Counted from the first letter of the stretch, positions 657 to 62,005 are shown. The stretch: DNA of 64,000 bases from Candidatus Saccharimonadales bacterium (GCA_035480235.1 DATIHX010000008.1:26845-90844); one strand, 5' to 3'. Made by a program: numbers and translations. Notes: a model not told the origin generated them from the sequence alone.

Positions 657-2204
657 ATGGAAAATAAGATAGTTGGCTTAACAGCCAAGCGGATAGAGAA
701 AGCGGTCATTTATTTACGGGTCTCGACCGAAGAGCAGGTCGAGAACTACTCGCTCGATACCCAAAAGGAGATTTGTAAGAAAGAAGCGGACAAACGCCAC
801 TACGAGGTGGCGGAGATATTTCGGGAAGAAGGCCGCTCTGCTAAGACCGCCGATCGGCCGGAGCTGATCCGAATGCTGGAATACTGCCGGAAGCACAAGA
901 AGCAGATCGACACGGTAATAGTTTATCGGCTCGATCGGATCTCCCGCCAAACCTCGGATTATTTAGCCATCCGCAAAAAACTGACCGAGTGCGAGATTAC
1001 TTTAATCTCCGCTTCCGAACCGACCGGTAACAGCCCGACCGAGAAGTTTGTCGAAACGATGCTAGCTGGATTTGCCCAGATGGATAACGATATCCGAAGC
1101 GAACGGTCGCGTAACGGCATGAAAGCTCGGTTTTTAACCGGCCTCACCAACGGCGCGGTTCCTTTGGGCTACATCACCCTCAACGGCTACGCGACGAAAG
1201 ACCCCGAAAGCTGGGATTTGATGAAAGCGGCTTGGGAACGGATGGCCACCGGTACGACAACGCTCCAAGAGATGGCCAATATTCTCACTAAACAGGGCGT
1301 CCAAGAAAAAGTTCGGGGCCGATTGAAGAAGCTCCGCTCCCAGACCATGTCCCGGATCTTCAAGAATAAGTTTTACACTGGCCTCATCGCCTCCAAAACC
1401 TACAACCAGGAGGTTAAAGGCCAACACCCGCCGATGATTACCGAAGAGCTGTTCTACCAAGTCCAGGCGGTCATCGAAGGACGGAACAATAGCAAAGCAG
1501 TCTTACTGGCCAAAAAGAATCCCAATAACCCGAACTTTCCGTTGCGGAGGATTATTAAGTGCAGTATTTGTGGCCATTCTTTCACCGGTGGCTACAGCAA
1601 GGGCAAGAAGGCCCGCTTTGGCTATTATTTCTGTCCACAACGCTGCTACAAGGGCCGCGGGTCCTCCGTGCCGATTGATGACATGGATCAGGAGATGATC
1701 GCCTTGCTGGGGAAGATAACGCTCAAAGAGAAAACCGCTGATTTATTAACGGCTTATATCCGCCGGACCTACCAGGAACGGGCAGCAACGTTAATTACTC
1801 GCCGAGCCGATGCCGACGAAGAGCTCCAGAGCCTCTATAAGATCCGCCAGACGTTGATTGAAAAGAATCTCTCCGGTATTTACTCGGATGATGTCTTTAA
1901 AGAGCAGAATAAGCGGATCGAAGAAAAGATCACGACGATCCAGATCACGAAAAACGATGAAGTCTTGGAGAAGTATAACCTTGAGAGGATTTGCGAATCC
2001 ATTACAGCCAAATTCGCAAACCTCGCTCAAACCTACACAGAATCGTCCCTAGAACAGAAGCGGGTCATGTTGTGTTCGATTTTCCCGGTCGGAGTGCCCT
2101 GGGGCTATCCGGGCTATTCGAACACCCAAATTCATGACGTTTACACCTGTTGCTTGGAACTAAACAGCAATGATGTCTCTTTTGGTGGACCCTACCGGGC
2201 TTGA
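657..2204 (+). CDS. Large serine recombinase with resolvase/invertase N-terminal catalytic domain, recombinase domain and C-terminal Cys-rich zinc ribbon.
   Basis: N-terminus AVIYLRVSTEEQ...YSLDTQ...RLDRISR with catalytic Ser, and central CSICGH...C motifs, are typical of phage or ICE large serine integrases. Confidence 0.85.
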   Translation: MENKIVGLTAKRIEKAVIYLRVSTEEQVENYSLDTQKEICKKEADKRHYEVAEIFREEGRSAKTADRPELIRMLEYCRKHKKQIDTVIVYRLDRISRQTSDYLAIRKKLTECEITLISASEPTGNSPTEKFVETMLAGFAQMDNDIRSERSRNGMKARFLTGLTNGAVPLGYITLNGYATKDPESWDLMKAAWERMATGTTTLQEMANILTKQGVQEKVRGRLKKLRSQTMSRIFKNKFYTGLIASKTYNQEVKGQHPPMITEELFYQVQAVIEGRNNSKAVLLAKKNPNNPNFPLRRIIKCSICGHSFTGGYSKGKKARFGYYFCPQRCYKGRGSSVPIDDMDQEMIALLGKITLKEKTADLLTAYIRRTYQERAATLITRRADADEELQSLYKIRQTLIEKNLSGIYSDDVFKEQNKRIEEKITTIQITKNDEVLEKYNLERICESITAKFANLAQTYTESSLEQKRVMLCSIFPVGVPWGYPGYSNTQIHDVYTCCLELNSNDVSFGGPYRA

Positions 2205-2258
2205 ACCGGTCACCTCCTGACTGCCAGCCAGGCGCTCTACCAAATGAGCTAAGGGCCC
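2183..2258 (-). tRNA. tRNA-Ala (anticodon GGC).
   Basis: Cloverleaf read by hand on the minus strand: acceptor GGGCCCT with a G3:U70 pair, anticodon loop CTGGCAG, T-loop GGTTCAAGCC, and an encoded CCA. Confidence 0.85.
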
Positions 2259-39404: not shown

Positions 39405-42400
39405 ATGGCGAAGGGACAAAGTGAGAATCGAGCGGCCGAAATTGCGTTGCAACCGGTGGAAATTTCCATCGAATTGCCGGGTAACGAAGCGAAAAAGAAA
39501 AAGACCGGTTTGAAGGTTAATCGCCGCTACACCAAGCCAGGTGAAGACGTCTTTGGTCAAATCGCTTGGGAAAAACGGACCTCGTTAATCACCGACGAAA
39601 AGGGCAACGTTATCTCCCAAATTACCGACCTGGAAATCCCTTCTACTTGGTCGCAGCTGGCCACCGATATTATCGCTTACAAATACCTCCGCAAGGCCGG
39701 CGTCCCCACGCCAGAAGGCCGGGAAACTTCCGCTAAACAGGCCGTTTACCGGATCGCTCACACGATGGCCGATTTCGGCGAAAAGTTCGGCTACTTTGCC
39801 ACCAAAGAAGACCGTCAGACCTTTGAAGACGAGCTAACCCATCTATTAATCAACCAAAAGGCCGCTTTCAATTCGCCGGTTTGGTTTAACTGCGGTTTGT
39901 ATCACCAATATAAAATTGAGGGCTCGGGCGGCTCGTTCTACTGGGACTTCAAAGAAGACAAAGTCTTGCCAGTGAAATACGGCTATCGCAACCCGCAGTG
40001 TTCGGCTTGCTTTATTTTAGCCGTCAAAGACACGCTGCCCGGCATTTTCGACGCTTTGAAAACCGAATCGCACATCTTTAAGTACGGTTCCGGTTCGGGC
40101 GCCAATTTCTCCACCTTACGGAGTAAATACGAAAAACTTTCGGGCGGCGGCACTAGCTCGGGCATGATGGCTTTTTTGCGGGTTTTTGACCGCGGCGCTG
40201 ACGCCGTTAAATCCGGCGGTACCACCCGCCGAGCGGCCAAAATGGTGGTGGTGAATATGGACCACCCCGAGATAGTAGAATTTATTAACTGGAAAGTTAA
40301 CGAAGAGAAAAAAGTTCAAGCCTTAATTAATGAAGGTTACTCGGCGGATTTTAACGGCGAAGCTTATCACACCGTTTCGGGCCAAAACGCCAACAACTCG
40401 GTGCGAATATCTGATGAATTTATGAAGGCCTACGAGCAAGACGGCGAGTGGAGCACCGTTTTCAAAACGACCGGCCAGGTCCACAAAACCTACAAAGCCC
40501 GGGAGATGATGGATATGATCGCCAACGCCGCTTGGCAGTGCGCCGACCCGGGGGTGCAGTTTGACACGACGATTAACGAGTGGCACACGTCTCCTAACAC
40601 TGATCGGATTAACGCTTCGAACCCGTGTTCGGAGTATATGTTCCTAGACGAAAGTGCTTGCAACCTGGCGTCGATCAACCTGGCAAAATATATTAATGAA
40701 GACGGCCAGTTTGACGTGGCTGGCTACCGCCACGCCGCCAGGATCATGTTCATCGGCCAAGAAATTGCCGTAGACTTGTCGAGTTACCCAACCGACCCAA
40801 TCGCCAAGAACTCCCACGATTACCGCCCGCTCGGCCTGGGCTACGCCAACCTTGGGACGCTTTTGATGCTCCGCGGCGTGCCGTACGACTCGCCAGAAGG
40901 TGCCGCTATCGGCGGGGCGTTAACGGCCATCATGACCGGCCACGCCTATAAGACTTCCGCGGAGATGGCCGCTGTTAAAGGCCCGTTCGCTGGTTTTATG
41001 AAAAACCGGGCGCCGATGCTGAATGTGATGAAGAAACACCGGGCGGCCGCTTACCGGATCAACGAAAAATACTGCCCAACCGAGATGTTGAACGCCGCTC
41101 ATCAGGACTGGGACGAAGCGGTAGCGTTAGGCGAGCAATTTGGTTACCGGAACGCCCAGGCCACGGTGATCGCCCCAACCGGCACGATCGGTCTTTTGAT
41201 GGACTGCGACACCACCGGCGTGGAACCGGACTTTGCCTTAGTGAAGTTCAAAAAACTGGCCGGCGGCGGCAGCATGAAAATCGTCAACAACGCCGTGCCA
41301 AAAGCCTTAAGTAACTTGGGTTACAATCCTGAACAGCAAAAAGAAATTATCGACTACGCTTTGGGCACTGGCACCTTGAACGGCAACACACCAATCAACC
41401 GGACATCTTTGCTAGCCAAGGGCCTAACCGACGTTGAACTGGACGCTGTGGAAAAAACTTTGCCAACCGCTTTCGACATTAACTACAGCTTCAACCGCTA
41501 CGTGCTGGGCGACGCCGCCATGGAGAAACTGGGCATTACCGCCAAAGACGAAGAGAAAAGCGACTTTTCCGTTTTGCGGAAGCTCGGCTTCGCTGAGTCG
41601 GAAATCAACCAGAGTAATGAGAAAATTTGCGGCACCCAGATGCTGGAAGGCGCCCCAAACCTGAAAAAAGAACACTACGCCGTGTTTGACTGCGCCAATA
41701 AGTGCGGCCAACGGGGGACCCGTTACATCGAAGCGATGGGCCACGTCCGGATGATGGCGGCCGTCCAGCCGTTTATTTCTGGAGCGATCTCTAAAACTAT
41801 CAACCTGCCGAACGACGCCACGGTGGAAGACGTAAAAAATGTCTATATTCAGTCGTGGAAACTCGGGCTGAAAGCCTTGGCACTGTACCGCGACGGCTCC
41901 AAACTTTCCCAACCGTTGAACGCCAGCCGCGACAAAGACGTTGAAGACAAAGAGGCCGCGCCGGTCGTTGCCGCCGTTAATGGCGTCCCGCACCGCCGCC
42001 GAATGCCGGACGACCGCCAAGCCATCACCCACAAATTCCGGATCGCTGGCCACAAAGGCTACATAACGGTTGGCTTGTTCGAGGACGGAACGCCGGGCGA
42101 GATCTTCATCACCATGGCTAAGCAGGGCAGCTTGATCTCGGGCCTGATGGACGCTTTCGCCACCTCGTTCTCGATCTCTTTGCAGTACGGCGTGCCGCTC
42201 TCGATCTGGGTGAGGAAATTTATCAACAGCCACTACGAACCGTACGGTTTTACGAGTAACCCGCAGATCCGGATCGCCAAATCGTTCACCGACTACATCG
42301 TCCGCTACCTGGCCATTAAGTTCTTAAGCAATGAAGAGCTAGATGAGCTAGGGATTAAAGTAGAAGGCGCCGGCCCGGCTCAAGCGGCCTTGTTTGAAGT

Positions 42401-42638
42401 ACCCCAACCGCCAGTGAGTGAAGCGAAAACCGTAGCCGCGCCAGAAGTACTGGCAACCGATCCGCTGCCAGTCGGTACAGCGGTAGAGAGCACGAGCGGT
42501 TTGCCGGAAGAACTGCCGGTGATGCCGGCCGCCCAAAGCGACGCGCCACCTTGCGCCACTTGCGGCTCAATGACCACCAAAACCGGCACCTGCTACACCT
42601 GCCTCTCCTGTGGCTCCACCACCGGCGGCTGCTCGTAG
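39405..42638 (+). CDS. nrdJ: Class II (adenosylcobalamin-dependent) ribonucleotide reductase with a C-terminal zinc-ribbon tail.
   Basis: NPCSEYMFLDESACNLASINL active-site block. C-terminal CATCGS...CYTCLSCGS. Confidence 0.92.
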   Translation: MAKGQSENRAAEIALQPVEISIELPGNEAKKKKTGLKVNRRYTKPGEDVFGQIAWEKRTSLITDEKGNVISQITDLEIPSTWSQLATDIIAYKYLRKAGVPTPEGRETSAKQAVYRIAHTMADFGEKFGYFATKEDRQTFEDELTHLLINQKAAFNSPVWFNCGLYHQYKIEGSGGSFYWDFKEDKVLPVKYGYRNPQCSACFILAVKDTLPGIFDALKTESHIFKYGSGSGANFSTLRSKYEKLSGGGTSSGMMAFLRVFDRGADAVKSGGTTRRAAKMVVVNMDHPEIVEFINWKVNEEKKVQALINEGYSADFNGEAYHTVSGQNANNSVRISDEFMKAYEQDGEWSTVFKTTGQVHKTYKAREMMDMIANAAWQCADPGVQFDTTINEWHTSPNTDRINASNPCSEYMFLDESACNLASINLAKYINEDGQFDVAGYRHAARIMFIGQEIAVDLSSYPTDPIAKNSHDYRPLGLGYANLGTLLMLRGVPYDSPEGAAIGGALTAIMTGHAYKTSAEMAAVKGPFAGFMKNRAPMLNVMKKHRAAAYRINEKYCPTEMLNAAHQDWDEAVALGEQFGYRNAQATVIAPTGTIGLLMDCDTTGVEPDFALVKFKKLAGGGSMKIVNNAVPKALSNLGYNPEQQKEIIDYALGTGTLNGNTPINRTSLLAKGLTDVELDAVEKTLPTAFDINYSFNRYVLGDAAMEKLGITAKDEEKSDFSVLRKLGFAESEINQSNEKICGTQMLEGAPNLKKEHYAVFDCANKCGQRGTRYIEAMGHVRMMAAVQPFISGAISKTINLPNDATVEDVKNVYIQSWKLGLKALALYRDGSKLSQPLNASRDKDVEDKEAAPVVAAVNGVPHRRRMPDDRQAITHKFRIAGHKGYITVGLFEDGTPGEIFITMAKQGSLISGLMDAFATSFSISLQYGVPLSIWVRKFINSHYEPYGFTSNPQIRIAKSFTDYIVRYLAIKFLSNEELDELGIKVEGAGPAQAALFEVPQPPVSEAKTVAAPEVLATDPLPVGTAVESTSGLPEELPVMPAAQSDAPPCATCGSMTTKTGTCYTCLSCGSTTGGCS

Positions 42639-50393: not shown

Positions 50394-51446
50394 ATGCGTC
50401 AGGTAGTAATTATGGCCGGGGGGAGCGGAACGCGGCTGTGGCCGATCAGCCGACAAGCAACACCTAAACAGTTTCAGAAACTAATTGGCGACCAAACATT
50501 ATTACAACAAACCTTCGGCCGAGCCGCTCAATTATTACCGACTGAACAAATCTGGGTGATGACTGGCGAGCAGTACGCCACGACGGTCGCCGAACAGTTG
50601 CCAGAGCTGCCCAAGAAAAACATCATTACCGAACCAGCGGCGCGCAACACCGCGGCGGCTAGCGGCTTGGCGACGCTGAAGATTACGGCGACCGACCCGG
50701 CAGCGTTGATCGCCATCTTACCGAGCGACCATTACATTGGGCGGGAAAAAGTTTTTATTAAAGCCCTCGACCAAGCTTTCAAGTTTGTGGAAACCCATAG
50801 CCAAACGATCGTGACAATCGGCATCCACCCAAGCACACCAAACACTGGCTACGGCTACATCGAAGTGGGGGACAGGCTCACCAACGGCAGCAAAACAATT
50901 AATAAAGTGGTTTCGTTCCACGAAAAACCCGATTTAGCGACCGCCGAAAAATATTTGGAAAACGGCCAATTTTTATGGAACGGCGGCTACTTTATTTTCA
51001 GCGCTCAAACAATGATAACGGCGTTTGAGGATCAGGCTACTGATATTTTGAGAAAGCTGGAAAGCTACATTGCCACGCCATCTAAAGAAGTATACGAAGC
51101 GATCCCCAAAGAACCGATCGATAAAGCCATCATGGAGAAGCTAACCGACTTAGCGGTGATTCCGGCCGAGATGGGCTGGAGCGACATCGGCGACTGGGCG
51201 GCTTTGCACGAGATACTCGCGGCCGAAAATAAAAATAGCGCCGTGGCAGTAGGGGAGCACATCGGCTCGAATACCGAGAATTCGCTGGTCATTGGCGGCA
51301 ATAAATTGATCGTGACTGTTGGCGTCAAAGATATTGTAGTGATCGATACTGACGACGTGATTTTAATTTGCGACAAAAATAGCGCCCAAGACGTGAAGAA
51401 GATTGTGGAGGCGCTCCAAGCCAAAGGTGACAATAGCCACCTTTAA
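50394..51446 (+). CDS. manC: Mannose-1-phosphate guanylyltransferase (nucleotidyltransferase plus cupin-like C-terminus).
   Basis: VIMAGGSGTRLWP N-terminus. Confidence 0.85.
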   Translation: MRQVVIMAGGSGTRLWPISRQATPKQFQKLIGDQTLLQQTFGRAAQLLPTEQIWVMTGEQYATTVAEQLPELPKKNIITEPAARNTAAASGLATLKITATDPAALIAILPSDHYIGREKVFIKALDQAFKFVETHSQTIVTIGIHPSTPNTGYGYIEVGDRLTNGSKTINKVVSFHEKPDLATAEKYLENGQFLWNGGYFIFSAQTMITAFEDQATDILRKLESYIATPSKEVYEAIPKEPIDKAIMEKLTDLAVIPAEMGWSDIGDWAALHEILAAENKNSAVAVGEHIGSNTENSLVIGGNKLIVTVGVKDIVVIDTDDVILICDKNSAQDVKKIVEALQAKGDNSHL

Positions 51447-51464
51447 AGTTAAGATGGGCCAGTA

Positions 51465-52724
51465 ATGCGACGGAATTTCTGGATCGGTTTAGTGTTAATT
51501 TTAGCCTTGATCGGCTTGGCTGGTTACATTAGTTGGCCAACAACCACCAAGTTTTTAAACCACTCGGTGTCCGTCCGCCAGGGGCTCGACTTGCAGGGCG
51601 GCGTGCGGTTAGTGTATCAACTAGATTTAAGTAAAACTGCCAAAAGCGATGTGGCTAACGCCATCCAATCGACGGTGCAGGTTATGGAACGCCGGGTGAA
51701 CGCCACTGGCGCCAGCGAGCCAGTGATCACCCCTGGCAAAACCTTAAAGGGCGAAAATATTATAACGGTGGAGCTACCGGGCATTAAAGACGTGCAAAGC
51801 GCCATCGATCTAATCGGTAAAACGGCCCAATTGGATTTCCGGGAAGAAGATTCGAAAGATTCCAGTAAATTTATACCCACCGGTTTGAGCGGTAAACAGC
51901 TTTCGAAAGCGACGGTGACGTTTGATCAAAATACTAATGTGCCGCAGATTAGTTTGCAATTCAACGCCGACGGCAGCCGACTCTTTGGCGACATCACCAC
52001 CCGTAACGTCAACAAGCCGATCGGGATTTTCTTGGACAATCAGGAGCTTTCGGCGCCAAACGTCAGCGAGCCAATAACCAGCGGCCAAGCGGTGATTACC
52101 GGCCGATTTACCATCGCCCAAGTGCGGCAGTTAACCACGCTCTTGAACGCCGGCGCCCTGGACGTGCCGCTCAAACAAACCTCGCAACAAACCGTCGGCG
52201 CAACGCTCGGCGCCGATTCAGTGAAAAAGAGCTTAGTCGCTGGCGTCATCGGCTTGAGCTTGGTAATGCTGTTTATGATTTTCAATTACCGGCTGGCTGG
52301 CTTCGTCGCTGTATTGGCGTTAGTAGGTTACACACTTATTACGTTCGCGCTGTTTAAGTGGATTCCCGTAACGCTAACGCTAGCTGGCATTGCTGGGTTT
52401 ATTTTGAGTATCGGTATGGCGGTGGACGCTAACATCTTAATTTTCGAACGGATGCGCGAGGAGTTGCGGCAGGGGAGGGAGCTGAAAATCGCGATGGAAG
52501 AGGGCTTTCGCCGGGCCTGGCCGAGCGTCCGCGACTCGAACGCCTCGACCCTCATTACCTCCGGAATTTTGTATGCTACCACGACGGGATTAGTGCGAGG
52601 CTTTGCACTGACCTTGGCGATTGGCGTATTGGTTTCACTCTTCAGCTCAATTACCTTAAGCCGGACCTTTTTGCGGTTGTTTAGCAGGGGAGTAGTGTTT
52701 CAAAAATGGCTAGCAAAAGTTTAA
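51465..52724 (+). CDS. secD: Protein translocase subunit SecD.
   Basis: Periplasmic domain followed by the 6-TM RND-like block. Confidence 0.92.
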   Translation: MRRNFWIGLVLILALIGLAGYISWPTTTKFLNHSVSVRQGLDLQGGVRLVYQLDLSKTAKSDVANAIQSTVQVMERRVNATGASEPVITPGKTLKGENIITVELPGIKDVQSAIDLIGKTAQLDFREEDSKDSSKFIPTGLSGKQLSKATVTFDQNTNVPQISLQFNADGSRLFGDITTRNVNKPIGIFLDNQELSAPNVSEPITSGQAVITGRFTIAQVRQLTTLLNAGALDVPLKQTSQQTVGATLGADSVKKSLVAGVIGLSLVMLFMIFNYRLAGFVAVLALVGYTLITFALFKWIPVTLTLAGIAGFILSIGMAVDANILIFERMREELRQGRELKIAMEEGFRRAWPSVRDSNASTLITSGILYATTTGLVRGFALTLAIGVLVSLFSSITLSRTFLRLFSRGVVFQKWLAKV

Positions 52725-52947
52725 TAATGAGTTTGGCCAAAGGAATAATTCCTTCTCGAACCGCCCTCTCCGGCCCAGCGGCCTCCGGGGCTTCACACTC
52801 AGCGATTTTTCCTCGAGTACTCGGAACCATGCAAAATCGCCTCCGTACGTTCTTCGAAGAAATTATTCCATCGGCCTTCACATTAATTGTTAATGGAGAA
52901 AATATTTTTCATACTAAGCTACCTGCATTTTTTGAAAGGGGAGGGAG

Positions 52948-53862
52948 ATGAGATTTTTGGGGAGAAAGAAATTCTGGTGGTTGGCGATTTCAGCCTTAAT
53001 TATGATTCCCGGCATTATCTCGTTATTTGTGTACAAGTTGCCGCTGGGGATTGATTTCAAAGGGGGAGCGCTGCTGCAAATTCAGTTTAGCAAACCTGTT
53101 AGTGAAGACGCGTTGAGAGGGGAGTTAGCTAAAATTCAAGAAGCTAAGGGGGCAACCGTCTCGAACGCCGGGAAGAGCAACGAATTTTTTGTCAAAACTT
53201 TGCCGATTAGCGAAGCTGACCATCGAAAAATTACTGATTCGCTGAAAAAAGATTTCGGCAATTTGAACGAAGAAGCGTTTCAATCTGTTGGCCCGAGCGT
53301 CTCGGCTGAACTCGCCCGTAAAGCAATTATCGCTCTGGTGGCGGCTTCGCTTGCGATTATCCTCTACCTCGCCTACGCTTTCCGGCAGGTGGCGAAGCCC
53401 GTTTCTTCCTGGACGTTTGGCACCGTCGCCGTGGCGGCCTTGATTCACGACTTGGTAATTTCGGTCGGGGTTTTCTCGATCGTCGCCCATTTCTTGCACT
53501 ACGAAGTCGACTCGAGTTTTATTACGGCTTTGCTGACGATTATGGGCTTTTCGGTGCACGACACAATCGTCGTCTTTGACCGGATTCGGGAAAACTTACT
53601 AAAGAACCGGGTCAACAGTGCCGAGGAATTTGAAGCGCTTGCCGACCAGTCGTTAAGTGAAACGCTAAACCGATCGTTATCAACAAGTTTAACGGTAATT
53701 GTGACGCTGACCGCGCTAGTGGTACTGGGTGGTGAAAGCATCCGGCCGTTTGTGACCACATTATTAATCGGCATTACCATCGGCACCTACTCATCGATTT
53801 TCACGGCCACGCCGCTCTTAGCATTGTGGCAAACGCGGCTTTTTAGACGGAACCGCTCGTAA
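52948..53862 (+). CDS. secF: Protein translocase subunit SecF.
   Basis: LGIDFKGGALLQIQF N-terminal block. Confidence 0.92.
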   Translation: MRFLGRKKFWWLAISALIMIPGIISLFVYKLPLGIDFKGGALLQIQFSKPVSEDALRGELAKIQEAKGATVSNAGKSNEFFVKTLPISEADHRKITDSLKKDFGNLNEEAFQSVGPSVSAELARKAIIALVAASLAIILYLAYAFRQVAKPVSSWTFGTVAVAALIHDLVISVGVFSIVAHFLHYEVDSSFITALLTIMGFSVHDTIVVFDRIRENLLKNRVNSAEEFEALADQSLSETLNRSLSTSLTVIVTLTALVVLGGESIRPFVTTLLIGITIGTYSSIFTATPLLALWQTRLFRRNRS

Positions 53863-53966: not shown

Positions 53967-53991
53967 GCCCGGCCGTAAGACCGGGCATTTT
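53967..53991 (+). terminator. Intrinsic terminator GCCCGG-ccgtaaga-CCGGGC + ATTTT downstream of secF.
   Basis: Seen directly. Confidence 0.55.
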
Positions 53992-54254
53992 CAGTAATCT
54001 TTTCGCATTCTCCGAAGCCTCCCGTAGTCAATGCAAACTTCCTTGATTTCCAGGCTCCAAAGCCACAAGGGCTTGAGTGAGTACAAGAAGATTCCAGCGC
54101 AGAGTAGACCCCAGATAAAAGGGTCTCCGTAGCCGCCGCGACGAATCTGCATCCAGCCAGTTGGAACGAGAACCCAAGCAAAAAGCCCTGAGCCGAAAAC
54201 TACTAATAAGACCACAAAACCGAAGAAGAACAGATAGGCGACTCGATAGAACAT
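53991..54254 (-). CDS. Small 2-TM membrane protein.
   Basis: GGAGG RBS 7 nt upstream, and a hydrophobic N-terminus. Confidence 0.45.
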   Translation of the reverse strand: MFYRVAYLFFFGFVVLLVVFGSGLFAWVLVPTGWMQIRRGGYGDPFIWGLLCAGIFLYSLKPLWLWSLEIKEVCIDYGRLRRMRKDY

Positions 54255-54545
54255 AGAACCTCCAATGGACTTGCTTTAGTTTAGCTGATCAACGAAAAGA
54301 ATCAAGAATAAAGCATCAAGCTATGTCCGGCAATGTATCTTGTGCGACGTAATAAAAATAATCAGGGCATTTAAGGGTAATTAGGCCTCGGCCTCCCTCA
54401 GGCCTCAAAGAGCGTGAAATAGCAGTGGAGCACTACCGTCTTAGCCCCGGCTCCCGGGTGTAATCACCAACAATTTGCAAAAATTTATGCACTCCCCCAC
54501 AACCGGCGGGGGAGGGGCGTCAAAAGAAAAAATAATAAGGGTAAA

Positions 54546-57500
54546 TTACAGCTCGTCGATCGGCTGAAAATCGTCAATTGGCGCTTTGGCGTCAACGGTT
54601 GTATTTGGCAGTTTTAAGCCGAGTTCGTCGGCCTTGTCCCAGGTAATTAGGTGCCCATTTTCGTCACTCGTCTCGCCTACTCCCCCACTCTGAACAGGTT
54701 GTGGTTCAGTGTTTTGATTCTCTTGGACAGTTGTTTCAACTTTCGGCTCCTCAACTTCAACCGAATTTGGCCCTGCTAGCGTTCCCCCGCCTGATAACTC
54801 CCCTGCTTCCGTTGGCGAGCTAACGGAGTACCATTTCCGATTAAAGCGATCGGAAAGCATCTCCAGTTTTCGGCCGGTCAGCGGTTCTTTTGGTTTTTCA
54901 CTCACTACTCCCCTATCCGCCGGCTGATTGGCCGGTTGATCGTCGGAGCGCTCTTCGACCGGTACTCCCCTATCGTCAAGGTTTTTTGGGGCCGACGCTG
55001 GCTCACTTTCCGCTTGTTCAACCGGTTGGTGCTCTAGTACTAGAGCACCGTTCGCTGGCACTTCCGATTCAGAAATTACCGGTGCCGTTGGCAAGACCGG
55101 AGTTGGCTTCGGGGTGACGATCCGCTCCCAATCTTGTTTGAGGCTTTTGGTTTTTTTATCTTCGTCGAGCGACAAGTTAACCGGTACCGACCAGTCGGTG
55201 ATGTAATCTTCCACGTCGGCGCGGGCAGTGGCGTACTGCTCTCGACTTCGTTCGATCACTAAATCTTTCAGCCGAGCTTTTTCTTCCGGCGGCGGTAAAG
55301 TAGCTGCTGAAAAAGCCGGTACCGTCACCCCATCGATCGCCATTTTCAAATAAATTTGGCGGTTCGGTAGATTAACTAAATCGTTGACGTCGAAAACCGG
55401 CTGGAACTCGTTTTTCATCGCTTCCGCGTCGCCCGAGCCCACCCGAAACGCGATCATCGTGCCGACGTTACCGAAGACGGCGTTGGCCACCGTTTCCGGC
55501 ATTTGGCTGATGTACTGGTTAATCATCACGAGATTGAGCCGATATTTGCGGGCTTCGGAAAGAATCGTCGCGAACGAATCGGTAGCGAAGTTTTGAAACT
55601 CGTCGACGTAGAGGTAGAAATCTCGGCGATCTTCTTCGGCCATATTGGTCCGGCTCATCGCCGCCAGTTGGATTTTGGTAATCAACATCGCGCCAAGTAA
55701 CGCCGAGTTGTCTTCGCCGATCTTACCGGTAGAAAGATCGGCTAGCAGGATTTTGCCGCCGTCCATGACTTGGCGAATGTCGAAAGCACTTTTCGGCTGG
55801 CCGACGATATTGCGGATAGTCGAGCTGGAGGTAAACTGGCCGACTTTATTTTGAATTGGGGCGATCGCTTCTTGGCGAAATTTTGGTTCGTATTTTTCGA
55901 ATTCGTTAATAAAGAAGTCTTTAACGACCGGGTCGTTAACGTTAGAAATAACTTGCCGGCGGTAAGCGTTATCGGTGAGGATTCGCATGACGCCGAGCAG
56001 GGTGGAATTGGGCGATTCTAAAAGAGCCAAAACCGAATTTCGTAAGATGTATTCCAGCCGCGGCCCCCAGCTCTCACCGAAGATTTTTTTGAAAATGCCG
56101 ACCACCCCAGATGCGACGACGTTGCGCATTTCCGGATCAACGTATTCCAGCACGTTAAAACCGATGGGGAAATGGTAATCGGCCGGCGAGAAATAAACAA
56201 CGTCGTTAACCCGTTCTTCGGGAATGAAATCTAAGATGTGGTCGATTAGTTCGCCGTGTGGATCCACCACCGCCACGCCGCGGCCTTCACGAATGTCGTC
56301 AAAAATCATGTTTTCCATCAGCGTCGATTTGCCGGTGCCGGTTTTGCCGATGATATAGCTGTGGAGGCGACGGTCTGGCTTTTTAATGCCGAATTTTTGT
56401 TCTTTGGCCCGGAAATTAACTTTCGCAAACACCGTTAACTCGTCAGCCGGGACGCTGCCGATTATCGGCAAATTAGCTGGCGGTTCGCCTTTTTTGCTGC
56501 CCGACCAAGCGATTTGTGGCGTCGCCACCGTTTGCGAAGGGAAATGGTAAATTGACGCCAGCTCGGTGATGTTGAAGAGCATGTCCGGCGCGCCAATCGC
56601 CCGGGCCTGGTACAAATCGATGGCGGCCGGGTCGTGAGAAATTTCTTTAGAAACGAAGGAATTAAGGTTAATACTATTGTATTGTTTGTAGGCGCCGATT
56701 AACTGCTCGAGTTTGGCGGTGGCAAAATTTGGGTCGCGGGCGATGGCCACCAGCCGAATCACCACTTCGAAACCGAGTTTAGTAATTTTTTCTTCGATCC
56801 CCTTGACCGCTTGCTGCTGCGAGCCGGTCAGCTCCTCTTTGTTATCTTTTTTCTCTTCTTTTTTCTCCGGCTCGGCGACTTTGCCGGTGAAAACCGCCCG
56901 GCCAAAATCCAGAACAAAAAGCAGTGATTTTTCACGAATTAACTCCGGCCAATGTTTGTGTTTCGGCGGTTTTTTGATGTTTTTTATCTCAGTTTCGCCT
57001 TGATCTTGCCAGTCGTCGTCAACCGGCCGGATGATGGTCTGAACCCAAAGCGACTCCCCTTCTCCGGCCGAACTTAATACGCCAGTGACGCCCGAGAGCG
57101 GATCAACTTCGAAATTTTGAAAAGTTTTAATTGGGTAGGTGCTCGGCCGCTTCAACGTTAGTTCGGTGGCGGCAACGGCGTTACCCTCGCTAAATTTGGC
57201 GTAATCTTCTTCGGCCGATAGTTCCTTGACATCAATGTTTGGGTACTGGGAGTAAATTTGGCTTAAAACAAAGTCTTTCAAGTCGGTGGGGACGTGAATA
57301 TAAAAAACGATATTTTGCTGGGTGTTAGCGATCTCAAAACTGATGCTCGGCTGGGCCTCGGCGTTAGTCCGAAAAATGCCGTGCAAGGCGGCAAAGAGCT
57401 GCTCGGCCGCTTGGGGAGTGCGCTCGTTATTGCGCGGCACGGCGATCGATAAAAGCTTGCTTTGGCCAGCCTCAACCGGCAACAACGGAACGTTTTGCTT

Positions 57501-57593
57501 AACTCGCAAGCGCCGGGTGGCTTGCCAAAAATATATCGCCCCCAGTAAAAAAAGGCCGATAAAACCGATATTAATGTAGGCGTAGAGTTGCAT
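54546..57593 (-). CDS. Membrane-anchored VirD4/TraG/TraD-like (FtsK-HerA superfamily) ATPase, paralog 2, with a C-terminal disordered acidic Pro/Glu/Val-rich tail of about 230 aa.
   Basis: N-terminal TM helix. Walker A GKTGTGKST, Walker B YLYVDEFQNF, followed by ARKYRLNLVMINQYISQ (TraG-D_C-like). Confidence 0.7.
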   Translation of the reverse strand: MQLYAYINIGFIGLFLLGAIYFWQATRRLRVKQNVPLLPVEAGQSKLLSIAVPRNNERTPQAAEQLFAALHGIFRTNAEAQPSISFEIANTQQNIVFYIHVPTDLKDFVLSQIYSQYPNIDVKELSAEEDYAKFSEGNAVAATELTLKRPSTYPIKTFQNFEVDPLSGVTGVLSSAGEGESLWVQTIIRPVDDDWQDQGETEIKNIKKPPKHKHWPELIREKSLLFVLDFGRAVFTGKVAEPEKKEEKKDNKEELTGSQQQAVKGIEEKITKLGFEVVIRLVAIARDPNFATAKLEQLIGAYKQYNSINLNSFVSKEISHDPAAIDLYQARAIGAPDMLFNITELASIYHFPSQTVATPQIAWSGSKKGEPPANLPIIGSVPADELTVFAKVNFRAKEQKFGIKKPDRRLHSYIIGKTGTGKSTLMENMIFDDIREGRGVAVVDPHGELIDHILDFIPEERVNDVVYFSPADYHFPIGFNVLEYVDPEMRNVVASGVVGIFKKIFGESWGPRLEYILRNSVLALLESPNSTLLGVMRILTDNAYRRQVISNVNDPVVKDFFINEFEKYEPKFRQEAIAPIQNKVGQFTSSSTIRNIVGQPKSAFDIRQVMDGGKILLADLSTGKIGEDNSALLGAMLITKIQLAAMSRTNMAEEDRRDFYLYVDEFQNFATDSFATILSEARKYRLNLVMINQYISQMPETVANAVFGNVGTMIAFRVGSGDAEAMKNEFQPVFDVNDLVNLPNRQIYLKMAIDGVTVPAFSAATLPPPEEKARLKDLVIERSREQYATARADVEDYITDWSVPVNLSLDEDKKTKSLKQDWERIVTPKPTPVLPTAPVISESEVPANGALVLEHQPVEQAESEPASAPKNLDDRGVPVEERSDDQPANQPADRGVVSEKPKEPLTGRKLEMLSDRFNRKWYSVSSPTEAGELSGGGTLAGPNSVEVEEPKVETTVQENQNTEPQPVQSGGVGETSDENGHLITWDKADELGLKLPNTTVDAKAPIDDFQPIDEL

Positions 57594-59990
57594 TTAAGTG
57601 GTGGGTTTAGCCGCTGAGGCGTTTGGGGCGAGGATTTGGACGGGGCCCTTGGCGTAGAGCGAACGGTTGTTGGCACGGATCCAGTTGGCCATCTCGACGG
57701 TTCCGGCGCCCGGCGTTTTCAGGCCGTTCATACTGAAGGGTTTGGTCGGCGTCAGATCCACCAGCAGTTTAACATATGTTTGAAAACGATCAAGATTAGT
57801 GAAGTCTTCGATCGTCAAACCGACCATCTCGCGGGCTAAGAATTCGGCGTCTTCGGCGCCGATGCGGTAACTAATGAGGGTGCCGACGTTGCCAATTACC
57901 GCGTCGCGGATTTTTTCCGTCAACTGGGCGAAGTACTGGTTGGTGATGTTTAAGCCCAGCCGATATTTGCGGGCTTCAGCCAAAATGGTGGCGAAGGTGT
58001 CGGTCGTAAAGTTTTGAAATTCGTCCACATAGAGGTAAAAGTCCTTACGATCAGTTTCGGCAATATTTGCTCGGCTAAAAGCGGCGATCTGAATTTTCGA
58101 AACCAAAATCAGGCCGAGCAAATTCGAGTTAATCTCGCCGATTTTGCCTTTAGCTAAATTAACAAAGAGGATTTTGCCGTCGTCCATCAGCTGCCGAAAA
58201 TTAAACGAGCTCTCTTTTTGGCCGATGATGTTGCGCATTAAATCGTTGGTCATAAAACGGCCAAATTTGGAGATGAAATAGTTGTACATCTCGGACTTGT
58301 GAAAATCGGCGGTTTTGGCCAGCTGCTGATCCCAGAAGGCTTTGACGACCGGATCGGTGAGATTGGCCACTGACGCGTCGCGGAAAGCGTCGTCGGTGAA
58401 GAGCCTTGGCAAGTCAATGAGCGTGCCGCCGCCCGGATTATTCATCACCGTTAAAGCAGCGTTGCGAGCCCAGTGCTCCCACTGCGGGCCGACGATACCG
58501 GTGCGGTTCGGGTCGAAAAGTTTGTAGAAAATTTCAATCACTTCTTGAATTAAGAAATCGCGTTCCTCGGGTTTTTGATACTCCAGCAAGTTCAAGCCAA
58601 ACGGGTATTGAGTGTCGGATGGGTCGAATAAAACCACGTCTTTAGCCCGTTCGGTCGGGACTTTCTTGAGGAGCGACTCGATAGCGTCGCCAAGTGGGTC
58701 GATGAAACACAGGCCTTTGCCGGCCGCCATATCTTGCTCGATCATTGTCTCAAACAGCGTCGTTTTACCGACGCCGGTTTTCCCAATCATAAAAATGTGG
58801 CGGCGGCGATCTTCATCTTGCAGGCGGACGTATTGTTTGACGCTGCGGTAGACCGATTCGCCGATGACGATGCCGGCTTTCGGTAAGTTGGCCGGCGCTG
58901 GCAATTTTTTCGCCCCCACCCATTTGACGCCGGGGGTTTCGAGAACGCGGGTGGGTAGATGGAAGAGGCTGGACAACTCCTCGACGTTCAAAAGCATTTT
59001 CGGGGCGCTATTAAACGAGCGCAACAAATACTCCCGGCTGATTTTTTGGCCGGTGGTTTTGCGGTATTTCAAACTATTATATTGCGGCGCGTAAAACTGC
59101 GAGAAAGCGCTAATAATGGTGGTCAGCCCGGCAGCGGCCGAAGCGTCGTCTTTGTCGGTGACGACCACCCGCAACACCGCCTCAAAACCGGTTTTACTGC
59201 CCTTTTCTTGCAAACCTTTCAAGAGCATCTCTTGTTCGGGGCTGACTTTTAAATCTTTGATCGGCGCGGTCGGTTTGACGACTTCGCCGATCTGGCCCAA
59301 AACTCGGGCGGTGCCGGTGCGGTTGACGAGATGGGCCTTGCCTTGCTGGACGTGGCCGGCAGCGATGTTGGTGTGCAGCCGCCAGTTTTCGCCGGTCGGC
59401 CGGATTAGTAGTTGAATCGCCGCGCCGTACGGCAGTTTAGTCATGGCGTTAGTGATCGCTTGGAGCGGATCGGCTTCCAGCGTTTGGTAGGTTTTAATCG
59501 GCAAGACAAAGTTTTTAGCCTGTTGGAAGATTGCCCCTGCCACCACCGGCGTTTCTTTGGTGAATAAACGCGGCGGCGGGCCAAGGGTAATTTCAGCGTG
59601 GGGAAAGTAACTTTGGAGCTGCCGTTCGATCACCTGCTGGACGCGCTTGGGTGCGACAATAGCGAAACTAATAACACCGCCCGAGGAGATAATTTCAAAA
59701 CTGACGTGGGCCGGGTTGCTGAAAAGCCAGTCGAGGAAGTTGCGCTGGTGAATAATGGTGGTGAGCGAGCCGAAAAATTGCTCCATCGGCGCGATCAGAT
59801 CTTTGAAATCCTTGACCGGTTCGTTGACCGATTTGTCGTCACGCTGATTGTCGCGCGGTAGTGAAACCAGCATACAAACCAGGCTGCCGGTGTCGGTGAG
59901 ATCTTCCCGGCGCTGAAAAAACCGAACCAAGAGCATCAAGGCCAGCGGCACCAACACAATAATAAGTAAAATGATGACCAGCGCGCTCAT
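57594..59990 (-). CDS. Membrane-anchored VirD4/TraG/TraD-like ATPase, paralog 1.
   Basis: N-terminal TM helix. Walker A GKTGVGKTT, Walker B YLYVDEFQNF, RKYRLGLNITNQYFAQ. It abuts paralog 2 (stop and start are adjacent). Confidence 0.7.
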   Translation of the reverse strand: MSALVIILLIIVLVPLALMLLVRFFQRREDLTDTGSLVCMLVSLPRDNQRDDKSVNEPVKDFKDLIAPMEQFFGSLTTIIHQRNFLDWLFSNPAHVSFEIISSGGVISFAIVAPKRVQQVIERQLQSYFPHAEITLGPPPRLFTKETPVVAGAIFQQAKNFVLPIKTYQTLEADPLQAITNAMTKLPYGAAIQLLIRPTGENWRLHTNIAAGHVQQGKAHLVNRTGTARVLGQIGEVVKPTAPIKDLKVSPEQEMLLKGLQEKGSKTGFEAVLRVVVTDKDDASAAAGLTTIISAFSQFYAPQYNSLKYRKTTGQKISREYLLRSFNSAPKMLLNVEELSSLFHLPTRVLETPGVKWVGAKKLPAPANLPKAGIVIGESVYRSVKQYVRLQDEDRRRHIFMIGKTGVGKTTLFETMIEQDMAAGKGLCFIDPLGDAIESLLKKVPTERAKDVVLFDPSDTQYPFGLNLLEYQKPEERDFLIQEVIEIFYKLFDPNRTGIVGPQWEHWARNAALTVMNNPGGGTLIDLPRLFTDDAFRDASVANLTDPVVKAFWDQQLAKTADFHKSEMYNYFISKFGRFMTNDLMRNIIGQKESSFNFRQLMDDGKILFVNLAKGKIGEINSNLLGLILVSKIQIAAFSRANIAETDRKDFYLYVDEFQNFTTDTFATILAEARKYRLGLNITNQYFAQLTEKIRDAVIGNVGTLISYRIGAEDAEFLAREMVGLTIEDFTNLDRFQTYVKLLVDLTPTKPFSMNGLKTPGAGTVEMANWIRANNRSLYAKGPVQILAPNASAAKPTT

Positions 59991-60283
59991 GGGTGTTGCT
60001 CGAATTGTTGAGCCAGGCTGTCTTCTAATTGGTCGGCCGGTAGATCGGCCTTAGTGGCAAGGAGCGTTTCTAGACTGATGGGCGGCGGCGCAGTGATTGG
60101 TTCGGCGGTAAGGGGTTGGGGCGAGCTAATCGGTTCATGGCCGAGCGGCGCTACTTCCGCCGGAATTGCTTGGCGAGCGCTCGCCTGTTCTTGGTCGTTA
60201 ATAATAACTGGCGGTGCCGGCTCACCAGCAACATTGGGCAGCGCTTCCGGCCCCACACCAAGAATACTCGGTTTCCCCTCCAT
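59987..60283 (-). CDS. 98-aa acidic Pro-rich protein, translationally coupled (ATGA) to ATPase paralog 1.
   Basis: GGAGGG-like RBS context (taaagtaATGGAGGGG). Low complexity. Confidence 0.4.
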   Translation of the reverse strand: MEGKPSILGVGPEALPNVAGEPAPPVIINDQEQASARQAIPAEVAPLGHEPISSPQPLTAEPITAPPPISLETLLATKADLPADQLEDSLAQQFEQHP

Positions 60284-60300
60284 TACTTTATTACTGTAAC

Positions 60301-61425
60301 TTAACCAAGATACTTTTGGTAGCGCTTCAGAAAACTGCCGTCTTCGATCGAAGCCCGGATGTTTTTCATCAGATTTAAGACAACTGAGAGGTTGTGATAA
60401 CTCAGCGCCCGAAGCGCGAAAGTTTCTTGACTGATGAGCAAATGACGCAGATAAGATTTCGAGAAATTTTGGCAGATTTTGCAGTGGCAATCGGGGTCGA
60501 GCGGCGCGGAATCGGTCCGGTATTGGGCGTTTTTGAGGTCGTGTTGAGTCAGTTTGGTCGTCCAGAAACTGCCGTGGCGAGCCAGGCGGGTGGGCAAAAC
60601 GCAATCGAACATATCGAAGCCCTGGTGGACAGCCCGAATCAGATCCTCAGGGTAACCGACGCCCATAAGGTAATGAGGGCGAAGCGGGTCCAGACCTTTG
60701 GCAACGTAATCGACAGCTTTATTAATCTTGTCTTTGCCTTCCGAGGCGATGGCGACGCCGCCAACCGCTATCCCGTCAAAGGGCAGGGCTTGAATTTCGT
60801 TCATCGACCGAAGGCGGAGATTTTCGTATAAACCGCCCTGAATAATACCAAATAACATTTTTTCCGACTTCCCTCTCCCCTCTTTCTGCCAATGGTCGAT
60901 GGAGCGTTTGGCCCACTCCCCTGTCCTGATGACAGCTGATTCGACCCGTTTCTCCGTTGCCTCTATGGGCGGGCAATCGTCCAGCGGCATCACAATATCG
61001 CTGCCGATTTTAGCTTGAATATCTAAAACCGATTCTGGGGTGAAAAAATGGGCTGAGCCGTCGTATGGCGAATAAAATTTGACGCCGTCGTTGGTAGTTT
61101 TGGCGCTTTTGGCTCGAGTTTCACCGAGCGAGTAGGCTTGGTAGCCACCGGAATCAGTCAGAATCGGCCGCGACCATTCTGACCACTCATTTAAACCACC
61201 GGCTTCGGCGATTAAGTCTTCGCCCGGCCGCAAATGGAGGTGGTAGGTGTTGCCTAAAATGATTTCGGCTCCCAGTTCCTCCATTTCCCAAGGCGCTAGC
61301 GTTTTGACGATGCCTTGGGTGCCGACCGGCATGAAAGCCGGCGTCTGAACGGTGCCGTGCGGCAACTCTAAAATGCCCGTTCGGGCTAAAGACCCTTTAA
61401 GAATTGACTTTATATTAAATTTCAT
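60301..61425 (-). CDS. tgt: Queuine tRNA-ribosyltransferase.
   Basis: GTVQTPAFMPVGT, DSGGYQ and Zn-site CxCxxC...H blocks. Confidence 0.9.
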   Translation of the reverse strand: MKFNIKSILKGSLARTGILELPHGTVQTPAFMPVGTQGIVKTLAPWEMEELGAEIILGNTYHLHLRPGEDLIAEAGGLNEWSEWSRPILTDSGGYQAYSLGETRAKSAKTTNDGVKFYSPYDGSAHFFTPESVLDIQAKIGSDIVMPLDDCPPIEATEKRVESAVIRTGEWAKRSIDHWQKEGRGKSEKMLFGIIQGGLYENLRLRSMNEIQALPFDGIAVGGVAIASEGKDKINKAVDYVAKGLDPLRPHYLMGVGYPEDLIRAVHQGFDMFDCVLPTRLARHGSFWTTKLTQHDLKNAQYRTDSAPLDPDCHCKICQNFSKSYLRHLLISQETFALRALSYHNLSVVLNLMKNIRASIEDGSFLKRYQKYLG

Positions 61426-61483: not shown

Positions 61484-62005
61484 TTAAATGCCCGCAGGAT
61501 TGATTTTTTGGCACTCGACAGGAACTTCACCGGCGAAAACCAAGCGGTAGCCTTGGCTCATTTGGCAAGGAAAATCTAATTCTTCGGTTGTAAAGCCGAG
61601 ATGAGCTACCATCGACTCGATCGGATCTTCGTGGAACGACAACACAATCTGCTCACCGGCGTGTTTTTGGCAAAGTTCCTGTAAAAAATCTTTGAAAGCC
61701 GCTCCCCGCTCGGCGTAACCCTGCACCTGGCCGTGATACATTTCCGCTAATTCAGACCGGCTGATTATATCCCCTGGAATCTCCGCCGCCACTTTAATAA
61801 TTTCGGCCGTTTCGACGGCCCGCTTCATGTGACTAGAATAAATGACTGATGGCGCAAAACTTTTCAGATACTCCCCTACTCTTTTTTCTTGCGCTCTCCC
61901 CTCTTCCGTTAACACCCGCTCGTTATCGATACCCGCGTCGCTACTAAAATCTTTGTCGGTTTGCCCATGCCGGATGAAAAAAATTACTGTCTGAAGTTTG
62001 GACAT
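61484..62005 (-). CDS. Histidine phosphatase family (PGAM/SixA-like).
   Basis: FFIRHGQT catalytic motif. Confidence 0.8.
   Translation of the reverse strand: MSKLQTVIFFIRHGQTDKDFSSDAGIDNERVLTEEGRAQEKRVGEYLKSFAPSVIYSSHMKRAVETAEIIKVAAEIPGDIISRSELAEMYHGQVQGYAERGAAFKDFLQELCQKHAGEQIVLSFHEDPIESMVAHLGFTTEELDFPCQMSQGYRLVFAGEVPVECQKINPAGI

Follow-up and report, generated by a model that had tools for sequence, protein, structure and literature searches.

The 64-kb stretch of DNA from a Candidatus Saccharimonadales bacterium analysed here (the window, in which positions are counted from the first letter) encodes two large membrane-anchored ATPases, referred to as A and B, in tandem on its minus strand. 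Both proteins combine a motor domain related to that of the type IV coupling proteins (T4CPs) with an N-terminal domain of predicted VirB4-type fold. On balance, we lean towards regarding the pair as a distinct branch of the T4CP lineage, made together and acting as a hetero-oligomeric receptor and motor which would feed a type IV-type channel encoded elsewhere.

Architecture of the two ATPases

An earlier note, made from the sequence of the window, had described A and B as T4CPs or VirB4-like ATPases of the FtsK-HerA superfamily, on account of a Walker A motif, a Walker B motif and an RKYRL..NQY..Q block. All three elements were located in both proteins (Table 1), and the catalytic residues, which are invariant in 105 sequences, are intact in both paralogues. 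The superfamily assignment stood, and the clearest affinity is to T4CPs, whereas the sequence models of VirB4 were not matched. In hidden Markov model searches, as the note had proposed, the two ATPases scored 33.7 and 29.0 bits with TrwB_AAD_bind (gathering cutoff 20.5) and 28.9 and 26.7 bits with T4SS-DNA_transf (gathering cutoff 20.1). Among 50 diverse relatives, for which 25 Pfam families were listed, TrwB_AAD_bind and TraG-D_C were each present in all 50, DUF87 in 34, AAA_10 in five, and FtsK_SpoIIIE and P-loop_TraG in two each; CagE_TrbE_VirB was not among the 25 families. A search of the family profile against PDB sequences retrieved TrwB (E 2e-4) and DotL (E 1.4e-3) only. Structural comparison of the motor gave the highest value for TrwB (24.0), followed by DotL (23.3), the C-terminal domain of VirB4 (22.5), Cagβ (22.4), HerA (22.0), EccC (17), TcpA (16.1) and FtsK (15.8). 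The motor is coupling-protein-like by sequence, and structurally it lies in the neighbourhood of T4CPs, VirB4 and HerA, with the T4CPs marginally first; best matches to FtsK or HerA with no affinity to type IV secretion systems (T4SSs), the outcome that would have spoken for another assignment, were not found.

It appears highly improbable that A and B are FtsK/SpoIIIE-like segregation translocases or HerA-like helicases of repair or defence. They share the superfamily with these proteins, DUF87 is frequent among their relatives, PADLOC returned weak matches to HerA and mad8, and a XerC/D-like recombinase is encoded nearby in 19 loci of one clade. However, the PADLOC matches span P-loop segments only, A and B have neither a multi-pass N-terminal domain nor a gamma (winged-helix) domain nor a HAS-barrel, and no NurA, Sir2 or DUF4297 partner is encoded in the window or at the loci examined. 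An anti-phage defence system was also considered, and was rejected, as PADLOC gave P-loop-level matches to HerA and mad8 only.

Like R388 TrwB, Legionella DotL and H. pylori Cagβ, A and B possess a membrane-anchored FtsK-HerA motor with an all-alpha insertion, but they differ from these T4CPs in that their genes are chromosomal, surrounded by housekeeping genes with neither a relaxase nor a channel gene close by, and duplicated as a pair, and by carrying a VirB4-like domain of about 340 amino acids (aa) between anchor and motor. This N-terminal part is a folded domain, and more than a spacer behind the transmembrane (TM) helix. Precomputed matches to PF26449 (DUF8128), a family of newer Pfam releases, exist for A, for B (as identical proteins P0001 and P0121) and for all listed relatives; a literature search yielded no paper mentioning DUF8128. 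The AlphaFold2 model of the N-domain has a pLDDT of 92.4. A sequence-only search of the PDB with this domain gave no match, and it was the fold comparison alone that revealed VirB4: Foldseek, queried with the N-domain without the P-loop, returned 14 matches at E ≤ 1e-3, all of them TrwK chains. Residues 15–400 of TrwK constitute the N-terminal domain, which forms the VirB4-VirB4 dimer contact in the R388 machine and binds VirB3 and the tails of VirB8 (PMC9259494). Since the query lacked the P-loop and TrwK 15–400 is the N-terminal domain, the match is most likely to the VirB4 N-domain, the aligned TrwK residues not being reported. The models suggest an architecture of TM anchor, VirB4-type N-domain and T4CP-type motor, that is, a VirB4/VirD4 hybrid. 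Both proteins start with a single hydrophobic helix followed by basic residues (RFFQRRED in A, where the AlphaFold2 model has a helix at residues 2–35), and by the positive-inside rule the N-terminus would be outside and the C-terminus inside, most of the protein being cytoplasmic.

The hybrid architecture also brings up the interpretation that A and B are divergent VirB4-type ATPases, energising or assembling a secretion apparatus instead of coupling substrates to it. Their length of about 800 aa and the succession of a VirB4-fold N-domain of about 340 aa and a motor agree with VirB4, TrwK and TcpF. Sequence models of the VirB4 family, in contrast, find no match: CagE_TrbE_VirB was not listed, P-loop_TraG and AAA_10 were rare among the relatives, and TIGR00929 scored 13 bits (cutoff 643). 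Moreover, A and B have a TM anchor of their own, whereas VirB4 relies on VirB3, and they are not adjacent to TrsD, VirB3, VirB6 or PrgI. Patescibacteria possess a separate, monophyletic VirB4 clade with PF19044, encoded beside TrsD and VirB3 (PMC12102498), and on plasmids and in phage G (see below) the homologue coexists with a bona fide VirB4 or TcpF. We consider this interpretation improbable.

A and B are old paralogues, sharing 36% identity over 761 aa (E 1e-150). The earlier note's description of them as tandem paralogous single-TM ATPases was borne out. The assembly duplication which it had considered as an objection is excluded, because identity is only 36% and the pair occurs in independent NCBI, JGI, ENA and Logan assemblies, at least seven in all. 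Orthologues fall into separate sets of about 800 aa (A) and 930–1100 aa (B), and the AlphaFold2 models have pLDDT values >92; an artefact of assembly or of mis-called open reading frames (ORFs) is accordingly a negligible explanation. In a rough neighbour-joining tree without support values, which was used solely for the placement of B, the B proteins form a deep separate clade; A groups with single-copy genes of other classes.

B exceeds A by an acidic, Pro/Glu/Asp-rich C-terminal tail. The earlier note had proposed a disordered tail of about 230 aa; the tail is present and comprises 246 aa, its disorder being suggested by composition. Three short motifs in it (Table 1) are kept in nearly all of 60 B orthologues inspected, and the rest of the tail is variable. 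The C-terminal tails of TraD and DotL bind partners, and the tail of B is reminiscent of them.

The small ORF preceding A codes for an acidic, Pro-rich protein, as the note had stated, which is probably disordered judging from its composition. Positional orthologues are present at loci L086 (41% identity), L087, L003 and L001. In most of 82 loci a small ORF lies directly upstream of the ATPase gene on the same strand, and its product consists of a disordered, Pro/Glu-rich N-terminal part and a short conserved C-terminal helix, a pattern into which the 98-aa protein fits. The sequence family of the small ORF differs from clade to clade. No other universally conserved neighbour was found at these loci, the best cluster being clade-bound and present in 19 of the 82. 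The 98-aa protein is a candidate adaptor, regulator or substrate of the ATPases.

Relatives on plasmids, in phages and among Patescibacteria

Matches to the family were found in 539 plasmid records, from Bacillus (292), Streptomyces (70), Staphylococcus (33) and Clostridium (19), as well as from haloarchaea and Sulfolobus. An alignment of the Patescibacteria family with a Bacillus plasmid protein by hhalign (probability 100, E 5e-49) covered 649 collinear columns spanning N-domain and motor. The "DUF87 / TraM-recognition domain" ATPases of Bacillus, Priestia, Streptomyces/Embleya and haloarchaeal plasmids and of phages are collinear with A and B over the full length, at 21–29% identity. Unlike A and B, they reside on mobile elements, by relaxase-like and channel genes, and are single-copy except for haloarchaeal tandem pairs. 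On two B. subtilis plasmids, the gene for the homologue is followed, in this order, by genes for a replication-relaxation protein, a conjugal transfer protein, TcpD/TcpE, TcpF (843 bits) and a large transfer protein; an Embleya plasmid encodes, one after the other, PrgI, an ATP-binding protein/ATPase, the homologue, a replication-relaxation protein and an NlpC/P60 protein. A literature search found no experimental paper on the role of the plasmid homologues. Their position, adjoining a relaxase-like gene, suggests that the family fills the coupling-protein slot in a set of conjugative elements of monoderm bacteria and archaea.

The Halorussus limi plasmid NZ_CP096663.1 (locus L093, 5514–12928) carries two tandem genes for TraM-recognition-domain ATPases downstream of a pilin gene. 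The DUF8128-matching region of the second ATPase is a separate ORF of 376 aa. The arrangement parallels the A/B pair in an archaeon.

Among phage proteins, phrog_5156 of PHROGs, to which no function is assigned, was matched over the full length with E values of 3.5e-91 and 3.4e-72. Homologues detected by tblastn include Bacillus phage G gp156 (1e-45 in BLASTP), SPO1 gp27.4 and a protein of CP-51, among others. In SPO1 (L088, NC_011421.1 89188–99275), the gene for the homologue gp27.4 is located between those for the ParM/Alp7A-like gp27.9 and for gp27.3, which contains a Replic_Relax domain. In phage G (L089, NC_023719.1 87012–97069), gp156 follows the TrbL/VirB6-like gp153 and the VirB4-like gp155. 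The lytic Bacillus phages SPO1 and G carry conjugation-like modules.

A profile of both N-domains matched 3,598 clusters (50% identity) in 1.84 billion representatives, 2,056 of them at E ≤ 1e-10; nearly all of the matching proteins are about 780–1130 aa long or are fragments. Scanning one genome per species gave at least 524 confirmed loci. Locus comparisons rest on the best 80 of these, which span lineages of Saccharibacteria, Microgenomates, Parcubacteria and Peregrinibacteria, and on further loci. The family is phylum-wide and chromosomal, and is located among housekeeping genes. Recurrent neighbours in other classes are themselves housekeeping genes and clade-bound, namely nrdR-nrdJ, genes for XerC/D-like proteins, and dnaX.

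The order tgt, small ORF, A, B was observed in Berkelbacteria-like loci only. At L008 and L009, a 180-aa gene and a sigma-like gene stand, in this order, between A and B. At the remaining loci examined, the ATPase gene is single-copy within ±6 kb, and tgt is not directly upstream. The synteny that the note had asked about is consequently real for the tgt and tandem order in the Berkelbacteria-like clade, but is absent elsewhere among about 75 loci.

A conserved protein of 170–250 aa (cluster c7) is encoded directly downstream of an A-type ATPase in eight loci, and between A and B in three of them. Examples are L001 (12636–13151), L008 (8561–9100) and L009 (8517–9080), and the protein also occurs at L015, L053, L058 and L070. 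In many cases dnaX comes next; in the window, no gene for this protein separates A from B.

Many TPA_asm records of metagenome-assembled genomes with a gene of the Patescibacteria type are titled "uncultured Gammaproteobacteria" or "Pseudomonadales" (L010, L012, L013, L019, L020 and others). Single records from the same scan are titled Nitrospirota, Limisphaerales or Bathyarchaeia, and L066, L074 and L078 are also among the oddly titled records. These off-phylum titles are probably wrong labels or stem from mis-binned contigs.

Gene order and genomic surroundings

An ORF check recovered all four minus-strand ORFs which the earlier note had combined into one transcription unit with overlapping stops and starts (Table 1). 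Overlap exists at one of the three junctions, where the stop of the small ORF and the start of A share the sequence ATGA. The other two junctions do not overlap: a gap of 17 nt separates the tgt stop from the ATG of the small ORF, and the stop codon of A (TAA) is immediately followed by the start codon of B (ATG), giving TAAATG with a gap of 0 nt. The tight same-strand spacing suggests co-transcription. The unit is, however, probably larger than the four genes proposed, as a histidine phosphatase gene (His_Phos_1) lies 58 nt upstream of tgt on the same strand, in an order repeated in L003, L086 and L087, and probably heads the unit.

Table 1 Features of the ATPase locus; nucleotide positions refer to the 64-kb window
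Feature	Position in protein (aa)	Position in window (nt)	Strand	Remarks
His_Phos_1 (histidine phosphatase) gene		61484-62005	minus	precomputed Pfam match; context, outside the machine
tgt, tRNA-guanine(34) transglycosylase		60301-61425	minus	Pfam TGT 3.8e-136; TIGR00430 435 bits (cutoff 306.75)
Small acidic Pro-rich ORF		59987-60283	minus	98 aa; net charge -11; 17% Pro
ATPase A		57594-59990	minus	798 aa; TM helix, DUF8128 (VirB4 N-domain-like) and T4CP-like motor
A, TM anchor	2-24	59919-59987	minus	followed by basic residues
A, DUF8128 domain	37-345	58956-59882	minus	predicted VirB4 N-terminal-domain fold
A, motor domain	374-760	57711-58871	minus	RecA-like nucleotide-binding domain
A, all-alpha insertion	476-604	58179-58565	minus	within the nucleotide-binding domain
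A, Walker A	403-411	58758-58784	minus	GKTGVGKTT
A, Walker B	651-661	58008-58040	minus	FYLYVDEFQNF
A, ARKYRL..NQY..Q	673-689
ATPase B		54546-57593	minus	1015 aa; paralogue of A, same architecture plus C-terminal tail
B, Walker A	416-424	56322-56348	minus	GKTGTGKST
B, Walker B	659-669	55587-55619	minus	FYLYVDEFQNF
B, ARKYRL..NQY..Q	681-697
B, C-terminal tail	770-1015	54549-55286	minus	246 aa; net charge -23; Pro/Glu/Asp-rich
B, tail motif KxE[IM]LxDRFxRxWY		54828-54869	minus
B, tail motif W[DE]xA[DE]ELGL		54615-54641	minus
B, C-terminal motif [DE][FL]xP[IL]DE[LI]		54546-54572	minus	including stop codon
Candidate terminator		54492-54514	minus	G+C-rich hairpin CTCCCCC...GGGGGAG, then T-run; about 30 nt past B stop

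Consensus scans for promoters and terminators performed at chance level and were uninformative. The hairpin with adjoining T-run behind B, which was not flagged by the consensus scan, appears in both the minimum free energy and the centroid folds and may terminate the unit. A search for RNA elements or riboswitches in the 290-nt spacer that follows B gave no Rfam match, and the fold z-score was 0.11. At 53991–54254 on the minus strand, 290 nt downstream of B and before the convergent secF, an ORF of 87 aa with two hydrophobic segments is present, which is a called gene in a public record (L004).

The window represents core chromosome, with genes for enolase, PGI, MreB, NusA, a Clp-family AAA+ ATPase, LexA, a DinB-type (IMS-family) polymerase, FtsA, FtsZ, NrdJ, an AddA-like helicase-nuclease, RluA, SecDF and L10/L12 (rplJL), among others, and its GC content is uniform. 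In NCBI, the window falls within contig CAZWSM010000002.1 of assembly GCA_964636455.1. It is labelled Saccharimonadia; its closest relatives are labelled Berkelbacteria.

The linkage to tgt, which the earlier note had called unusual, is real in the window, but it is clade-bound synteny: tgt adjacency is confined to the Berkelbacteria-like loci L001–L007, L086 and L087, and about 75 loci of other Patescibacteria classes show neither it nor the tandem arrangement. Because they are limited to one clade, they point to synteny by descent and not to a functional signature; tgt would be a housekeeping gene and a positional neighbour only, its adjacency reflecting inherited gene order. As a functional partner in general tgt was rejected, since in no other class is it directly upstream of the ATPase gene.

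In the window, tgt and secD/secF (50394–53862) flank the ATPase pair. In E. coli, queA, tgt, yajC, secD and secF are neighbours. The pair therefore seems to have settled within an old tgt/secDF neighbourhood, and the linkage to tgt would be accounted for in this way.

Two further features of the window were noted. A large serine recombinase (Resolvase, Recombinase and Zn_ribbon_recom) is encoded at 657–2204 (plus strand), ending inside or at a tRNA-Ala gene (2183–2258, minus strand); the junction may be the border of an integrated element. At 39405–42638 (plus strand) lies the gene for NrdJ, a class II ribonucleotide reductase with a TSCPD domain at its C-terminus. The public record lacks a gene with exactly this product, and its gene call is thus not the longest ORF.

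Coupling protein or stand-alone translocase

In the coupling model towards which we lean, A and B are single-pass membrane-anchored ATPases, probably ring-forming, which would be made together, as the ATGA and TAAATG junctions suggest. They would assemble at the cytoplasmic face of the membrane into one hetero-oligomeric complex, either a mixed ring or a ring of dimers formed via the N-domains. The VirB4-like N-domains might provide dimer or docking contacts, by analogy with those of VirB4 in the R388 machine. The complex would then act as substrate receptor and motor for a translocation channel of type IV kind, the genes of which would lie in another part of the genome, and the acidic tail of B and the small acidic protein could be adaptor, regulatory or substrate-docking elements which recruit or regulate partners or substrates, by analogy with the tails of TraD and DotL.

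Published genetics adds to the case for this model. The T4SS gene cluster of S. epibionticum (Southlakia) is essential and lacks a recognisable coupling protein (Wang et al. 2023, PMC10633639). In the transposon sequencing (Tn-seq) data of the same study, SEML1_0142 (1019 aa, P-loop at 381–800) is essential at all time points (class I), and SEML1_0141 (139 aa), encoded directly upstream of it, is essential in class II; SEML1_0293 (921 aa, PF10412 at 402–719), preceded by a sigma factor gene, is non-essential (PMC10633639). A DUF8128 protein of another Saccharimonadales genome is identical in length to SEML1_0142 and has a matching neighbourhood, and the sigma-then-ATPase order of SEML1_0293 agrees with the B-type loci L008 and L009. 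SEML1_0142 is a probable A-type and SEML1_0293 a probable B-type orthologue. In a survey by Quinonero-Coronel et al. (2025) of 3,035 genomes of Patescibacteria, 2,918 carried VirD4-type T4CP homologues, which numbered 5,713 altogether and about two per genome (PMC12102498), and its Table S3 includes adjacent or near-adjacent pairs matching the t4cp2 profile at about 63% coverage. These homologues are very probably the same genes as the A/B family.

In the survey, the T4CP homologue of S. epibionticum counts as non-essential (PMC12102498). The Tn-seq table (Table S1, PMC10633639) contains another protein with this architecture, SEML1_0142, which it places in essential class I, and its small upstream gene SEML1_0141 is listed as essential too.

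Several points weigh against the coupling model. As the earlier note had remarked and annotation of the 64 kb confirmed, no T4SS or pilus gene was found in the window, nor was any T4SS component found within ±6–10 kb of about 85 Patescibacteria loci. The NCBIfam equivalog models for T4CPs (TraD, the CD1115 family, TraD_Ftype) reached 36–49 bits at best, against cutoffs of 250–647. T4CPs have two TM helices directly before the nucleotide-binding domain, whereas A and B have one. Only 148 of the 5,713 T4CP homologues are near virB4, VirB4 itself being found in 2,417 of the 3,035 genomes, and the authors of the survey raise exaptation (PMC12102498). The probable B-type homologue SEML1_0293 is dispensable, and the two S. 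epibionticum proteins were assigned as orthologues by their length, annotation and neighbourhood, and not by sequence alignment. Finally, hetero-oligomerisation and the roles of tail and small protein are inferences.

The main rival explanation is that of a T4SS-independent housekeeping translocase, captured from a conjugative element early in the evolution of Patescibacteria, in which A, or A and B, together with the small protein would form a membrane-anchored pump, for either DNA or unfolded protein. Such a pump might handle the chromosome or DNA at the membrane, take up or export nucleic acids, or export disordered proteins. In favour of this explanation are the wider distribution of T4CP homologues compared with VirB4, housekeeping synteny and the phage contexts. 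As the homologues are mostly located away from virB4 and occur in more genomes than VirB4, many copies may work without a T4SS. The surroundings are strictly housekeeping in kind, with rplJL, tgt and secDF in the window and the genes named above elsewhere, and SPO1-type phages carry the homologue together with a relaxase-like and a ParM-like gene, with no channel genes in the 10-kb stretch inspected. Furthermore, SEML1_0142 was essential already at T0, whereas the T4SS genes are in class II (PMC10633639); the difference between the classes is, however, small in raw counts (11 of 136 versus 9 of 93 sites hit). On the other hand, the homologues on the plasmids inspected sit in full conjugation operons with TcpF, TcpE and TcpD, or with PrgI, a finding also to be set against the self-contained translocation or attachment module that the earlier note had put forward as a possibility; the VirB4-like N-domain is a docking module in the sole machine in which it has been seen (PMC9259494), and a stand-alone pump has no evident substrate or channel. 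We regard the housekeeping translocase as possible, though rather unlikely.

A more speculative proposal, which we put forward as doubtful, is that the DUF8128 ATPases, with a coupling-protein motor and a retained VirB4 N-domain, are a surviving VirB4-VirD4 intermediate, fixed in the ancestor of the Patescibacteria as an essential translocase, either T4SS-independent or with an unrecognised partner. The A-type ATPase and its fast-evolving disordered partner would be the core of this translocase. If true, the intermediate might be the missing route by which auxotrophic epibionts move DNA or protein across the membrane.

That these genes are annotated as T4SS-related, and that Patescibacteria contain orphan T4CP homologues, was already known. 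New are the VirB4-like N-domain, the link to the plasmid and phage coupling class, the distinction between a phylum-wide family and a tgt linkage and tandem order limited to one clade, the small ORF conserved upstream of the ATPase gene, the tail motifs of B, and the connection to the essentiality of a probable A-type orthologue. The N-domain, the distinction between A and B, the tail motifs and the upstream small ORF are not described in the 2025 survey (PMC12102498).

Patescibacteria, which are host-dependent, account for a large part of bacterial diversity, and in the one species tested a type IV system is essential and its coupling protein is unrecognised. The A/B family provides concrete candidates for that coupling protein, and the existing genetic system of Southlakia makes these candidates testable. 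The link to an uncharacterised class of coupling proteins from plasmids of Gram-positive bacteria and archaea and from SPO1-like phages, moreover, bears on the divergence of VirB4 and VirD4.

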